DNA of 64,000 nt, taken from assembly GCF_024502345.1 (NCBI RefSeq), contig NZ_JALDNN010000001.1; one strand, written 5' to 3'. The notes below the pieces were generated by a model that was not told the origin of the DNA, did not search any database, and worked only from the letters and a program-made list of their open reading frames with translations. The translations under genes and the position numbers were made by a program. This document shows, piece after piece, positions 1,828 through 63,251 of the stretch (positions are counted from its first letter, which is position 1; every line of letters starts with the position of its first letter). The stretch is from Escherichia coli. GTDB lineage: Bacteria; Pseudomonadota; Gammaproteobacteria; Enterobacterales; Enterobacteriaceae.

Positions 1828-1868
1828 CGGTCCCCTCGCTCCTCTGGGGTTAGGGTGAGGGGAACCCG
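1828..1868. repeat. GC-rich imperfect palindrome, box C-like intergenic repeat (TCCCCTCGCTC..GGGTGAGGGGAA)
   Basis: Inverted repeat tcccctc/gaggggaa; nearly identical arms recur at 20128..20160. Confidence 0.5.
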
Positions 1869-3018: not shown

Positions 3019-3222
3019 ATGAGTCTGTTTCCCGTTATCGTGGTGTTTGGGCTGTCCTTCCCACCGATATTTTTTGAATTGCTTTTATCACTGGCGATTT
3101 TCTGGCTGGTGCGCCGGGTACTTGTGCCAACAGGTATCTACGACTTTGTCTGGCATCCGGCGTTGTTCAACACCGCGCTCTATTGCTGCTTGTTTTATTT
3201 GATATCGCGACTGTTCGTTTGA
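3019..3222 (+). CDS. aaeX: AaeX small membrane protein
   Basis: 67-aa product [14 protein letters not shown]...; ATG at 3019 chosen over the longer track ORF starting at 2950. Confidence 0.85.
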
Positions 3223-3229
3223 GGTTGAA

Positions 3230-4162
3230 GTGAAAACACTAATAAGAAAATTCTCCCGTACGGCCATCACGGTCGTATTAGTCATTCTGGCCTTCATCGC
3301 AATTTTTAATGCCTGGGTCTATTACACCGAATCCCCCTGGACGCGTGACGCGCGCTTTAGCGCTGACGTCGTTGCGATCGCGCCGGACGTTTCTGGACTC
3401 ATTACCCAGGTGAATGTTCATGATAACCAGCTGGTGAAAAAAGGACAGATACTGTTCACCATCGACCAGCCGCGCTATCAAAAGGCGCTTGAGGAAGCGC
3501 AAGCCGATGTTGCTTATTATCAGGTACTGGCACAGGAGAAACGCCAGGAGGCCGGACGTCGTAACCGTCTCGGTGTGCAGGCGATGTCTCGCGAAGAGAT
3601 CGACCAGGCTAACAACGTACTACAAACGGTTCTGCATCAGTTAGCGAAAGCGCAGGCGACCCGCGATCTGGCAAAACTGGATCTTGAACGCACGGTGATC
3701 CGCGCGCCAGCAGATGGCTGGGTGACCAACCTCAACGTCTATACCGGTGAGTTTATTACTCGAGGATCAACGGCGGTTGCGCTGGTGAAACAGAACTCCT
3801 TCTATGTACTGGCCTATATGGAAGAAACTAAGCTGGAAGGGGTGCGTCCGGGGTATCGTGCAGAGATCACGCCGCTTGGCAGTAACAAAGTGCTGAAAGG
3901 GACTGTTGATAGTGTTGCCGCTGGGGTCACCAACGCCAGCAGCACGCGTGACGACAAAGGGATGGCGACCATCGACTCTAACCTTGAATGGGTGCGTTTG
4001 GCGCAACGTGTTCCGGTTCGTATTCGTCTCGACAACCAGCAAGAGAACATCTGGCCTGCGGGCACCACTGCTACAGTGGTGGTCACTGGCAAACAAGATC
4101 GCGACGAAAGCCAGGATTCGTTCTTCCGTAAAATGGCCCATCGCCTGCGTGAGTTTGGTTAA
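3230..4162 (+). CDS. aaeA: p-hydroxybenzoic acid efflux pump, membrane fusion subunit
   Basis: ORF track 310 aa; GTG start at 3230; N-terminal TM segment then HlyD-like coiled coil. Confidence 0.92.
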
Positions 4163-17522: not shown

Positions 17523-17798
17523 GTGGCTTCTGTTTCTATCAGCTGTCCCTCCTGTTCAGCTACTGACGGGGTGGTGCGTAACGGCAAAAGCACCGCCGGA
17601 CATCAGCGCTATCTCTGCTCTCACTGCCGTAAAACATGGCAACTGCAGTTCACTTACACCGCTTCTCAACCCGGTACGCACCAGAAAATCATTGATATGG
17701 CCATGAATGGCGTTGGATGCCGGGCAACCGCCCGCATTATGGGCGTTGGCCTCAACACGATTTTCCGCCATTTAAAAAACTCAGGCCGCAGTCGGTAA
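17523..17798 (+). CDS. insA: IS1 InsA
   Basis: ORF track 91 aa [24 protein letters not shown]..., matches InsA. Confidence 0.97.
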
Positions 17799-18220
17799 CC
17801 TCGCGCATACAGCCGGGCAGTGACGTCATCGTCTGCGCGGAAATGGACGAACAGTGGGGATACGTCGGGGCTAAATCGCGCCAGCGCTGGCTGTTTTACG
17901 CGTATGACAGGCTCCGGAAGACGGTTGTTGCGCACGTATTCGGTGAACGCACTATGGCGACGCTGGGGCGTCTTATGAGCCTGCTGTCACCCTTTGACGT
18001 GGTGATATGGATGACGGATGGCTGGCCGCTGTATGAATCCCGCCTGAAGGGAAAGCTGCACGTAATCAGCAAGCGATATACGCAGCGAATTGAGCGGCAT
18101 AACCTGAATCTGAGGCAGCACCTGGCACGGCTGGGACGGAAGTCGCTGTCGTTCTCAAAATCGGTGGAGCTGCATGACAAAGTCATCGGGCATTATCTGA
18201 ACATAAAACACTATCAATAA
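17717..18220 (+). CDS. insB: IS1 InsB (made as InsAB' transposase after a -1 frameshift)
   Basis: ORF track 167 aa [21 protein letters not shown]..., in the -1 frame relative to insA. Confidence 0.95.
17774..17780 (+). promoter_or_regulatory. IS1 programmed -1 ribosomal frameshift site (A6C)
   Basis: AAAAAAC heptamer in the insA/insB overlap. Confidence 0.8.
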
Positions 18221-19228: not shown

Positions 19229-20122
19229 ATGGCAACGAATTTACGTGGCGTAATGGCTGCACTCCTGACTCCTTTTGATCAACAACAAGCACTGGATAAA
19301 GCGAGTCTGCGCCGCCTGGTTCAGTTCAATATTCAGCAGGGCATTGACGGTTTATACGTGGGTGGTTCGACCGGCGAAGCCTTTGTACAAAGCCTTTCCG
19401 AGCGTGAACAGGTACTGGAAATCGTCGCCGAAGAGGCGAAAGGTAAGATTAAACTCATCGCCCACGTCGGTTGCGTCAGCACCGCCGAAAGCCAACAACT
19501 TGCGGCATCGGCTAAACGTTATGGCTTCGATGCCGTCTCCGCCGTCACACCGTTCTACTATCCTTTCAGCTTTGAAGAACACTGCGATCACTATCGGGCA
19601 ATTATTGATTCGGCGGATGGTTTGCCGATGGTGGTGTACAACATTCCAGCCCTGAGCGGGGTAAAACTGACCCTGGATCAGATCAACACCTTGGTTACGC
19701 TGCCTGGTGTCGGCGCGCTGAAACAGACCTCTGGCGATCTCTATCAGATGGAACAGATCCGTCGTGAACATCCTGATCTGGTGCTCTATAACGGTTACGA
19801 CGAAATCTTCGCTTCCGGCTTGCTGGCGGGCGCAGACGGCGGTATCGGCAGTACTTACAATATCATGGGCTGGCGCTATCAGGGGATCGTGAAGGCGCTG
19901 AAAGAAGGCGATATCCAGACCGCGCAGAAACTGCAAACTGAGTGCAATAAAGTCATTGATTTACTGATCAAAACGGGCGTATTCCGCGGCCTGAAAACTG
20001 TTCTGCATTATATGGATGTTGTTTCTGTGCCGCTGTGCCGCAAACCGTTTGGTCCGGTAGATGAAAAATATCTGCCAGAACTGAAGGCGCTGGCCCAGCA
20101 GTTGATGCAAGAGCGCGGGTGA
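19229..20122 (+). CDS. nanA: N-acetylneuraminate lyase
   Basis: ORF track 297 aa. Confidence 0.96.
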
Positions 20123-20127
20123 GTTGT

Positions 20128-20160
20128 TTCCCCTCGCTCGCCCCTACCGGGTGAGGGGAA
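20128..20160. repeat. GC-rich imperfect palindrome, same family as 1828..1868
   Basis: ttcccctcgctc..gggtgaggggaa in the nanA-nanT spacer. Confidence 0.5.
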
Positions 20161-20230
20161 ATAAACGCATCTGTACCCTACAATTTTCATACCAAAGCGT
20201 GTGGGCATCGCCCACCGCGGGAGACTCACA

Positions 20231-21721
20231 ATGAGTACTACAACCCAGAATATCCCGTGGTATCGCCATCTCAATCGTGCACAATGGCGGGCATTTTCCG
20301 TTGCCTGGTTGGGATATCTGCTTGACGGTTTTGATTTCGTTTTAATCGCCCTGGTACTCACCGAAGTACAAGGTGAATTCGGGCTGACGACGGTGCAGGC
20401 GGCAAGTCTGATCTCCGCAGCCTTTATCTCTCGCTGGTTCGGCGGCCTGATGCTCGGCGCTATGGGTGACCGCTACGGGCGTCGTCTGGCAATGGTCACC
20501 AGCATCGTTCTCTTCTCGGCCGGGACGCTGGCCTGCGGCTTTGCGCCAGGCTACATCACCATGTTTATCGCTCGTCTGGTCATCGGCATGGGGATGGCGG
20601 GTGAATACGGTTCCAGCGCCACCTATGTCATTGAAAGCTGGCCAAAACATCTGCGTAACAAAGCCAGTGGCTTTCTGATTTCAGGCTTCTCTGTGGGGGC
20701 CGTCGTTGCCGCTCAGGTCTACAGCTTGGTGGTTCCGGTCTGGGGCTGGCGTGCGCTGTTCTTTATCGGCATTTTGCCAATCATCTTTGCTCTCTGGCTG
20801 CGTAAAAACATCCCGGAAGCGGAAGACTGGAAAGAGAAACACGCAGGTAAAGCACCAGTACGCACAATGGTGGATATTCTCTACCGTGGTGAACATCGCG
20901 TTGCCAATATCGTAATGACACTGGCGGCGGCTACTGCGCTGTGGTTCTGCTTCGCCGGTAACCTGCAAAATGCCGCGATCGTCGCTGTTCTTGGGCTGTT
21001 ATGCGCCGCAATCTTTATCAGCTTTATGGTGCAGAGTACGGGCAAACGCTGGCCAACTGGCGTAATGCTGATGGTGGTCGTGTTGTTTGCTTTCCTCTAC
21101 TCATGGCCGATTCAGGCGCTGCTGCCAACGTATCTGAAAACCGATCTGGCTTATAACCCGCATACTGTCGCCAATGTGCTGTTCTTTAGTGGCTTTGGCG
21201 CGGCGGTGGGGTGCTGCGTCGGTGGCTTCCTCGGTGACTGGCTGGGAACCCGCAAAGCGTACGTTTGTAGTCTGTTGGCCTCGCAGCTGCTGATTATTCC
21301 GGTATTTGCGATTGGCGGTGCAAACGTCTGGGTGCTCGGTCTGTTACTGTTCTTCCAGCAAATGCTTGGACAAGGGATCGCCGGGATCTTACCAAAACTG
21401 ATTGGCGGTTATTTCGATACCGACCAGCGTGCAGCGGGCCTGGGCTTTACCTACAACGTTGGCGCATTGGGCGGTGCACTGGCCCCAATCATCGGCGCGT
21501 TGATCGCTCAACGTCTGGATCTGGGTACTGCGCTGGCATCGCTCTCGTTCAGTCTGACATTTGTGGTGATCCTGCTGATTGGTCTGGATATGCCTTCCCG
21601 CGTTCAGCGTTGGCTGCGCCTGGAAGCATTGCGTACTCATGACGCTATCGACGGCAAACCATTTAGCGGTGCCGTGCCATTTGGCAGCGCCAAAAACGAT
21701 TTAGTCAAAACCAAAAGTTAA
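20231..21721 (+). CDS. nanT: sialic acid:H+ symporter (MFS)
   Basis: 496 aa from [22 protein letters not shown]...; track ORF trimmed by 10 codons. Confidence 0.95.
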
Positions 21722-34779: not shown

Positions 34780-34891
34780 CCCCGGCTAGACCGGGGTGCG
34801 CGAATACTGCGCCAACACCAGGGAAATCTTGGCTGCGCCGTAAATTATTATGATGAGTTACAAGGGCACAGCACTGTTTTTCAGGCCGCAC
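34771..34891 (-). ncRNA. arcZ: ArcZ small regulatory RNA (SraH/RyhA)
   Basis: Minus strand reads GTGCGGCCTGAAAAACAGTGCTGTGCCC...GCGCAGTATTCGCGCACCCCGGTCTAGCCGGGGTCATTTTTT, matching ArcZ as I recall it; its terminator overlaps the arcB stop codon. Confidence 0.85.
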
Positions 34892-56360: not shown

Positions 56361-56460
56361 AATCTCGCGCTAACAACCTGGAATCGAGCCGTCATACTAC
56401 GGCGCAACGCCCTATAAAGTAAACGATGACCCTTCGGGAACTTCAGGGTAAAATGACTAT

Positions 56461-56513
56461 CAAAATGTGAATTGTAGCTGACCTGGGACTTGTACCCGGG
56501 TCGGTATTTTTTT
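56461..56513 (+). ncRNA. graL: candidate GraL, the greA leader RNA ended by an attenuator hairpin
   Basis: -10-like TAAAAT at 56449..56454, then hairpin gacctggg..cccgggtc and a T7 run about 95 nt upstream of the greA ATG. Confidence 0.4.
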
Positions 56514-63164: not shown

Positions 63165-63251
63165 GCCGAGGTGGTGGAATTGGTAGACACGCTACCTTGA
63201 GGTGGTAGTGCCCAATAGGGCTTACGGGTTCAAGTCCCGTCCTCGGTACCA
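63165..63251 (+). tRNA. leuU: tRNA-Leu, anticodon GAG
   Basis: 87 nt GCCGAGGTGGTGGAATTGGTAGACACGCTACCTTGAGGTGGTAG...GGTACCA with long variable arm and encoded CCA; 14 nt after secG. Confidence 0.95.

Follow-up and report, generated by a model that had tools for sequence, protein, structure and literature searches.

A Stem Loop in the nanA-nanT Spacer of Escherichia coli as a Probable Two-Block Derivative of the BoxC Intergenic Repeat

The palindrome found between nanA and nanT, inside the sialic acid (nan) operon of Escherichia coli, is very probably a degenerate, two-block derivative of the intergenic repeat known as BoxC, PIT (potential intrastrand triplex) or TM-ECO. What is new here is the hairpin as a member, missing from the published K-12 census, of an already known repeat family; it is not a new kind of system. 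The finding is a modest one and is largely explained, and its regulatory context is informative.

The window, i.e., the whole stretch of 64,000 nt that was analysed, is E. coli chromosome and runs from yhdP/tldD by way of nanR-nanATEK-yhcH, then gltBD and arcB, as far as rpoN. Gene annotation was taken from near-identical genomes, the closest of which is strain FDAARGOS_943 (99.8%). The first-pass annotation placed the palindrome inside the nanATEK operon at the nanA-nanT junction, and the gene coordinates confirm this (Table 1). The nanA-nanT spacer is 108 nt long in both the window and K-12, and the two sequences are identical.

Two other observations concern the window at large. Overlapping open reading frames of 91 and 167 aa (17523-18220), between dcuD/dcuC and nanR, match an IS1A transposase annotated at the same place in FDAARGOS_943; K-12 has no IS1 there. 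An Rfam scan of the window detected the ArcZ sRNA, the greA leader and a tRNA (34784-34891, 56391-56512 and 63165-63248), all of them known features in their expected places.

Table 1. Window coordinates of features at the nanA-nanT junction and of the related element between tldD and aaeR.
Feature	Position	Strand	Basis or remark
nanA	19229-20122	+	open reading frame list and annotation in near-identical genomes
nanA stop codon TGA	20120-20122	+	1 nt separates it from the stem base at 20124 (stem starts 2 nt after the stop)
Hairpin, very probably BoxC-derived, two-block	20124-20164	+	predicted fold, z -6.2; arms in common with 1831-1864; family consensus; Pseudocitrobacter BoxC pair at the orthologous site
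5′ arm of hairpin	20124-20140	+	pyrimidine block TCCCCTCGC...
Loop of hairpin	20141-20147	+	CCCCTAC
3′ arm of hairpin	20148-20164	+	includes ..GGGTGAGGGGA, which is the RH block in BoxC
Linker between the two hairpins	20165-20200	+	predicted mostly unpaired; rich in C and poor in G (11 and 4 nt); includes the predicted Spot 42 site as well as AAAUAAA, an A-rich stretch
Spot 42 complement, predicted site	20170-20181	+	UCUGUACCCUAC; perfect 12-nt match to Spot 42 nt 1-12 (spf from K-12)
nanT leader hairpin	20201-20215	+	GTGGGC-ATC-GCCCAC; conserved; just upstream of the Shine-Dalgarno sequence
Shine-Dalgarno sequence GGAG	20220-20223	+	
Rho termination region, best coordinate	20228	+	K-12 3,372,577 (minus strand), 3 nt ahead of the start codon of nanT (Supplementary file 2 of Adams et al. 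2021)
nanT coding sequence	20231-21721	+	ATG at 20231; 496 codons plus stop
Related (sister) element	1831-1863	+	between convergent genes tldD and aaeR; 33-nt allele

The arms of the nan hairpin form 17 pairs, 14 of them Watson-Crick and three G-T, around a 7-nt loop. The palindrome first noted at 20128-20160 is the core of this longer stem. The sense RNA has a predicted folding energy of -26.1 kcal/mol, as against -11.2 ± 2.4 kcal/mol for shuffled sequences, and none of 200 shuffles folded as well. The antisense strand reaches only -17.6 kcal/mol because the G-U pairs turn into C-A mismatches, which leaves the sense fold 8.5 kcal/mol more stable. Two long-range pairings within the spacer, GCGGGUG with CAUCUGU and UGAGU with ACUCA, were also considered and are too weak to interpret.

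The nan hairpin does not have the form of an intrinsic terminator, in which a GC-rich stem is directly followed by a U tract: the bases after the stem are AAAUAAACGCAUC / AAATAAACGC, and a promoter and terminator scan found nothing at the hairpin. Nor is its sequence related to the REP consensus (GCCGGATG..., a GTAGGCCGGATAAGGC-type palindrome). In the Rfam scan of the whole window no match above the gathering threshold falls on the hairpin, and a search of the spacer at E≤10 returned only unrelated families, with best E-values of 1.6-7.

The hairpin has a relative in the same window, in the intergenic region between tldD and aaeR. It had been stated earlier that the nan palindrome has the same arms as an element at 1828-1868, and this is correct. 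The 11-nt block TCCCCTCGCTC is common to both elements (20129-20139 and 1831-1841), as is the 12-nt block GGGTGAGGGGAA (20149-20160 and 1853-1864). The pattern CCCCTC-N5-30-GAGGGG is found at these two sites only in the 64 kb, with 0.04 sites expected, and none of 100 shuffles contained two or more. The interiors of the two elements differ in sequence and in length, with 29 nt between the pattern ends in one and 31 nt in the other. Thus the two are diverged relatives; the description of the nan palindrome as a second copy of the same repeat holds for the family, but not for the sequence as such.

The K-12 sister copy is a full 39-nt three-block element. It is listed as TM-ECO no. 14 (3,390,494-529, between aaeR and tldD; PMC4666352, Table 1) and is HPGQ 37 of Kaplan et al. 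2016 (PMC5100583). Relative to K-12, the window allele has lost 6 nt from the purine block and carries two substitutions. Alleles of 39 nt (K-12), 33 nt (window), 32 nt and 27 nt (strain H105) are found in E. coli strains, the length steps being of 6 nt and situated inside G-rich direct repeats. The 27-nt allele of H105 is a plain hairpin.

BoxC, PIT and TM-ECO denote one family, present in 23 copies in K-12 (Holder et al. 2015, PMC4666352), and the same elements have been described under the names HPG1 and HPG2 as a G-quadruplex/hairpin switch (Kaplan et al. 2016, PMC5100583). Further sources on the family are Bergler 1992 and Hoyne & Maher 2000, 2002. The canonical element consists of a Y block (CCCTCGCCCC), a loop, an R block (GGGGAGAGGG), a TTA or CCG junction and an RH block (GGGTGAGGGG); TTA defines type A and CCG type B, before the RH block GGGTGAGGG(G) (PMC4666352). 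For the family, triplex formation and G-quadruplex/hairpin switching have been seen in vitro, and instability and hypervariability have been reported, while in vivo footprinting of a canonical copy did not detect the triplex (PMC4666352). Holder et al. also describe TM-ECOs that have degenerated and stem loops resulting from a "palindrome effect", and they report an inverted arrangement of types A and B at five K-12 sites (PMC4666352). According to Hoyne & Maher 2002, as cited in PMC4666352, PIT/BoxC elements show no promoter or terminator activity.

Of the Y block, the nan copy retains the first 8-9 nt, and it has the RH block in full. Compared with the Y block CCCTC(G/T)CCC(C), it has CCCCTCGC at 20130-20137 but goes on with TCGCCCC where CCC(C) is expected, which looks like a doubling of TCGC. 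On the 3′ side, CCGGGTGAGGGGA at 20147-20159 contains the RH block and resembles the type-B junction CCGGGGTGAGGGG. The central R block GGG(G)AGAGGG, which pairs with Y, is absent, and the interior of the nan copy reads TCGCCCCTACC. Since one of the three blocks is missing and only two G runs are left, the nan copy does not have the sequence that a triplex or a G-quadruplex requires. Judged by its sequence, it should therefore form an ordinary hairpin only, and neither an intrastrand triplex nor a four-tract G-quadruplex. Its distribution is that of the family, i.e., intergenic, dispersed and multi-copy: one copy is in the nanA-nanT spacer and one at 1831-1863, with 23 in K-12. The first-pass annotation was right in relating the palindrome to the 1828-1868 element, but it did not recognise the family, the missing middle block or the adjoining Spot 42 site.

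The nan hairpin is absent from the main texts of both publications and from the list of 23 copies in K-12 (PMC4666352, PMC5100583). It was also not found by gene name or arm sequence in the accessible parts of the PMC4666352 supplement.

To place the arms in a wider setting, one genome per bacterial species was scanned for TCCCCTCGC-N5-30-GGTGAGGGGA. The scan gave at least 120 loci; E. coli is outside the matches listed, which come from Enterobacter, Pseudomonas, Bordetella, Devosia, Aeromonas, Verrucomicrobia, Planctomycetes, cyanobacteria, Chloroflexi, Thiomargarita and others. The three-block architecture (TCCCCTCGCCCC, loop, GGGGAGAGGG, TTA or CCG, GGGTGAGGGGA) is present in 92 of the 120 matches listed, and a minority of the 120 are ordinary terminator-like hairpins with the same arms. 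A near-identical 39-nt BoxC core spans phyla. In distant single genomes (a Verrucomicrobia MAG, Thiomargarita and one more) a BoxC-like core is found inside longer repeats, the flanks of which are conserved as well.

The nanA-nanT spacers of ten other genera were fetched via NanA/NanT homologues. It should be noted that the 90%-identity protein cluster containing E. coli NanA also takes in full-length NanT proteins, so that cluster membership is unreliable for both; presumably mis-assembled or fused reading frames, e.g., the 407-aa P0001, provide the link. The members listed for the cluster come from E. coli, Salmonella and Citrobacter only. Two NanA matches at 94% identity are E. coli sequences with assembly frameshifts, and their spacer is identical.

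In Pseudocitrobacter faecalis, the nanA stop codon is followed by a type-A BoxC in reverse orientation and a type-B BoxC in forward orientation. The flanks are homologous to those of E. coli and align as TGAGTT.. on the left and ..AAACGCATC..CATACCAAAGCG on the right. This spacer (3395-3530 of its locus) is given as 200 nt, with two full inverted BoxC elements for which a single, very long hairpin is predicted. Kluyvera displays a partial forward element after the nanA stop, also between homologous flanks, which ends in ..GGGGAAAT as in E. coli. From these alignments, the nan copy is probably what remained when a BoxC element, or a pair of them in inverted orientation, that formerly occupied this site collapsed. 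The loop junction of CCCTA with CCGGG fits the collapse of an inverted A+B pair. Extra indels in the left arm, where TCGC is repeated, are needed under an origin from an inverted pair as well as under one from a single element with a canonical Y block. The series of 39, 33, 32 and 27 nt at the sister locus is proposed as the decay route that the nan copy followed.

Other genera have other sequences after the nanA stop. Stems of unrelated sequence are found in Salmonella, Klebsiella aerogenes and Superficieibacter, that of Salmonella being weak. Two species of Citrobacter, Yokenella and Enterobacter have REP-like palindromes, and Trabulsiella has other GC-rich palindromes. All 11 genera sampled display some stem loop just after the nanA stop, formed by unrelated sequences (REP-like, BoxC and others). 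The sense strand gives the stronger fold in 7 of the 11, a mixed result in which several z-scores are weak and which is therefore not used as support.

Within E. coli the nan spacer is almost invariant. A 136-nt query over the spacer is matched at ≥99% identity in 5393 of 5408 genomes, with 15 at 95-99% and none at 90-95%. An equal-sized query over the tldD-aaeR locus gave 365 genomes at ≥99%, 2222 at 95-99% and 2834 at 90-95%; the 33-nt allele of the window is shared at ≥99% by only 365 of 5421. In an evenly spaced sample of the matches, the nan spacer was 100% identical in about 70% of genomes. Between the window and K-12 there are 28 differences in 298 third codon positions of nanA and 20 in 497 of nanT. 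At that rate about six changes would be expected in the spacer, where none of the 108 positions differs. However, the nanR-nanA and nanT-nanE spacers likewise show no differences between the window and K-12, and so it may be the Spot 42 site, the nanT leader or a low diversity of the region, and not the hairpin, that accounts for the conservation.

The only variant seen in the core stem is 20131 C>T in strain E2348/69, which changes a C-G pair to U-G and keeps the pairing. Other substitutions in the spacer are 20126 G>T, at an outer G-U pair, and 20188 C>T, in the linker; indels consist of an extra T in a T run and a rare deletion at the nanT start. In one genome of 5409, E. coli 01G17CRGN001 (3182-3193 of the locus), the spacer has been deleted entirely, hairpin included, along with the last part of nanA and the first part of nanT, and the two genes are annotated as pseudogenes in this strain.

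The sequence that follows the hairpin contains a complement to the 5′ end of the small RNA Spot 42 (Table 1). The predicted site begins 6 nt after the stem and, at 50-61 nt upstream of the start codon of nanT, falls outside the usual ribosome-binding region. Two papers cite nanT as a target of Spot 42. Salmonella has kept 11 of the 12 nt, with CTGTACCC unchanged, and the site is absent from the aligned spacers of Pseudocitrobacter and Kluyvera. The linker as a whole may be a loading region for Rho or Hfq.

Between the linker and nanT is a second, smaller stem loop. The nanT leader (20186-20230) reads ATTCATACCAAAGCG-N-GTGGGC..GCCCAC-CGCGGGAGACTCAC in the window, and ATTCATACCAAAGCG..GTGGGC..GCCCAC-CGCGGGAGACTC is found in five of six aligned genera. 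The hairpin and the Shine-Dalgarno sequence are present in all six, Salmonella being the one that differs upstream. The closing pair of this hairpin varies among genera (G-C, G-T or A-T). A second group of genera, made up of Citrobacter, Yokenella, Enterobacter and Trabulsiella, has a different nanT leader, AATCGTCGGGAGAGTAAAATG.

Published transcript data show polarity at this junction, as the first-pass annotation had supposed in proposing a difference between nanA and nanT expression. In the data of Adams et al. 2021 (PMC7815308), a Rho termination region with a Rho score of 2.1 and p of 6e-5 has its best-scoring coordinate at the equivalent of window 20228. Without bicyclomycin there are 164 reads upstream and 58 downstream, a 2.8-fold drop; with bicyclomycin the reads are 205 and 152, a drop of 1.35-fold. 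The decrease is largely relieved by bicyclomycin and is therefore Rho-dependent. The Rho score is computed over 800-nt windows, and thus the polarity is placed at the junction, not at a nucleotide (PMC7815308).

The Term-seq data of the same study, from LB at two densities and M63 glucose, media in which nan is uninduced, have no 3′ end at K-12 3,372,6xx (PMC7815308). An entry for nan is also missing from the TERMITe supplements. The sole Term-seq entry of nanA is an internal 3′ end at K-12 3,373,531 on the minus strand (about window 19274), 45 nt inside the nanA frame, with ~54,000 reads in LB; it is not flagged as a Rho region (PMC7815308). This 3′ end suggests premature termination or processing early in nanA.

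The explanation considered best, held tentatively and with something less than even confidence as a whole, is that the BoxC-derived hairpin serves as a barrier to 3′ exonucleases. The hairpin would be transcribed within the nanATEK-yhcH mRNA and form an RNA stem loop of about -26 kcal/mol, predicted on the sense strand, 2 nt after the nanA stop. It would not act as an intrinsic terminator, and polarity would come from events downstream, i.e., from pairing of Spot 42/Hfq at 20170-20181 together with Rho-dependent termination in the spacer or early in nanT. Exonucleases working 3′ to 5′ may then trim the transcript back to the hairpin and halt there, by analogy with the REP stem loops in malEFG. 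The nanA segment would outlive the RNA distal to it in nanT, and the NanA:NanT ratio may exceed 1 and vary with catabolite state. By analogy, the whole scheme would parallel that of Spot 42 and Rho at galT-galK.

The central step, protection of nanA mRNA by the hairpin when nanT is silenced, is put forward a shade more cautiously than the explanation as a whole. It is consistent with the z-score of the sense-strand hairpin (-6.2), the near-invariant spacer, the adjoining Spot 42 complement and the Rho region. Against it, a stable decay intermediate should give a Term-seq 3′ end, and none is listed at the foot of the hairpin under conditions in which nan is uninduced; in addition, permissive spacers collect REP and BoxC elements whether or not these have a function. 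The first-pass annotation offered partial termination and differential mRNA stability as alternatives for the nanA-nanT junction. Of these two, differential stability is plausible and is favoured over termination caused by the hairpin.

The main rival to the exonuclease barrier is that the hairpin is a dead BoxC remnant, harmless and without a role of its own, and this has perhaps one chance in three of being the correct reading. Having lost the middle block, it would be free of the direct repeats that are prone to slippage and therefore stable, and its invariance would be a side effect of constraint on the nanT leader and the adjoining Spot 42 site, or of low diversity. The 6-nt steps of the sister locus, which occur in just those G-rich repeats that the nan copy has lost, argue for this reading, as do the equal invariance of all nan spacers between the window and K-12, the merely weak and unrelated stem at this position in Salmonella and the lack of a listed Term-seq 3′ end at the hairpin (LB and M63 glucose, nan uninduced). 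The family, moreover, has no known function and is reported to show neither promoter nor terminator activity. However, zero changes in 108 positions, where about six are expected at the third-codon-position rate, and near-identity over about 5400 genomes count against this reading. The three G-U pairs and the C>U variant preserve pairing on the sense RNA only, and the presence of a stem loop just after the nanA stop in 11 of 11 genera sampled also speaks against a relic.

A stronger version of the functional reading is that BoxC, a selfish repeat and normally an unstable one, has been domesticated here, loss of the middle block having given a fixed sense-strand RNA hairpin. Combined with Rho-dependent termination and the predicted Spot 42 site, this hairpin would make a three-part intercistronic module that uncouples nanA from nanT under catabolite control, and the unrelated palindromes at the same position in other genera would represent convergent recruitment. 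This version is doubtful, at about one chance in four.

It is unlikely that the hairpin acts instead by presentation, keeping the A- and C-rich sequence 20162-20200 single-stranded beside the stem for Hfq/Spot 42 binding or for Rho loading, and so setting nanT repression without being a decay barrier. In its favour, the Spot 42 complement starts 6 nt past the stem with AAAUAAA between, the linker, with 11 C against 4 G, is predicted to be mostly unpaired, nanT has been cited as a target of Spot 42 and a Rho termination region falls at the spacer. The comparison of genera points the other way, since Salmonella, which does not have the nan hairpin, retains 11 of the 12 nt that match Spot 42 (CTGTACCC unchanged), and Pseudocitrobacter and Kluyvera have BoxC sequence without the Spot 42 site.

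Less probable again is a partial terminator or attenuator, at which RNA polymerase would pause or end so that fewer transcripts enter nanT. The stem is strong and GC-rich, reads drop over the junction (PMC7815308), and Kaplan et al. speculated that operon-internal copies of the family work as terminators (PMC5100583). However, the stem is followed by AAAUAAACGCAUC and by no U tract (T tract in the DNA), the terminator scan is empty at this site, and bicyclomycin largely relieves the drop in reads, which makes it Rho-dependent. In reporter tests PIT elements reportedly showed no terminator activity, and the Term-seq data contain no 3′ end at the stem (LB and M63 glucose, nan uninduced). The claim of partial termination caused by the hairpin is thus not upheld.

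A DNA-level structure (triplex, G-quadruplex or cruciform) that affects replication or local instability is highly improbable: the parent family shows triplex and G-quadruplex/hairpin switching in vitro and reported instability, but the nan copy lacks the R block and has two G runs only, its locus is the opposite of unstable (5393 of 5408 genomes at ≥99%, against 365 at the sister) and in vivo footprinting gave no sign of the triplex even in a canonical copy (PMC4666352).

The assignment gives a name, BoxC/PIT/TM-ECO, and an origin to a palindrome that is left blank in genome annotation, and it shows that two-block remnants are missing from the published K-12 census (23 copies). Within one window, and over about 5400 genomes, a canonical copy is hypervariable whereas a collapsed copy is frozen, a contrast that bears on whether the three-block structure of BoxC elements causes their instability. 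In addition, the hairpin, the Spot 42 site and the published Rho region are found together in a 108-nt spacer, which provides a model of how E. coli could make more of the aldolase than of the transporter.

With the BoxC/PIT/TM-ECO family, the nan copy shares the 5′ start TCCCCTCGC, the 3′ block GGGTGAGGGGA and the intergenic placement. It differs in having two blocks, with 31 nt between the arm ends, and in being without the capacity for triplex or G-quadruplex. It is also almost invariant in E. coli, whereas the family, and the tldD-aaeR copy with it, is hypervariable.

REP/BIME stem loops reportedly act as intercistronic stabilisers of mRNA, as described for malE-malF by Newbury, Higgins and co-workers in 1987. 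The nan hairpin resembles these in being a GC-rich palindromic repeat that is transcribed between genes of one operon, just past the stop codon of the upstream gene, and in being predicted to be stable enough to block 3′ exonucleases. REP-like palindromes also occupy exactly the nanA-nanT position in Citrobacter, Yokenella and Enterobacter. However, the nan hairpin belongs to another sequence family, one without a known transposase (RAYT) association, and a stabilising role would be assigned to it by analogy.

A second parallel is galT-galK, where discoordinate regulation by Spot 42 and Rho is said to have been described by Moller in 2002 and by Wang et al. in 2015. The nan site differs in that the Spot 42 complement is 50-61 nt upstream of the start codon and not over the ribosome-binding site, and we infer, for nan, that the hairpin is connected with Spot 42 and Rho. 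The likeness is in the arrangement: as in gal, the nan operon has an internal Spot 42 complement and Rho-dependent polarity at the same junction, with the upstream cistron left expressed.
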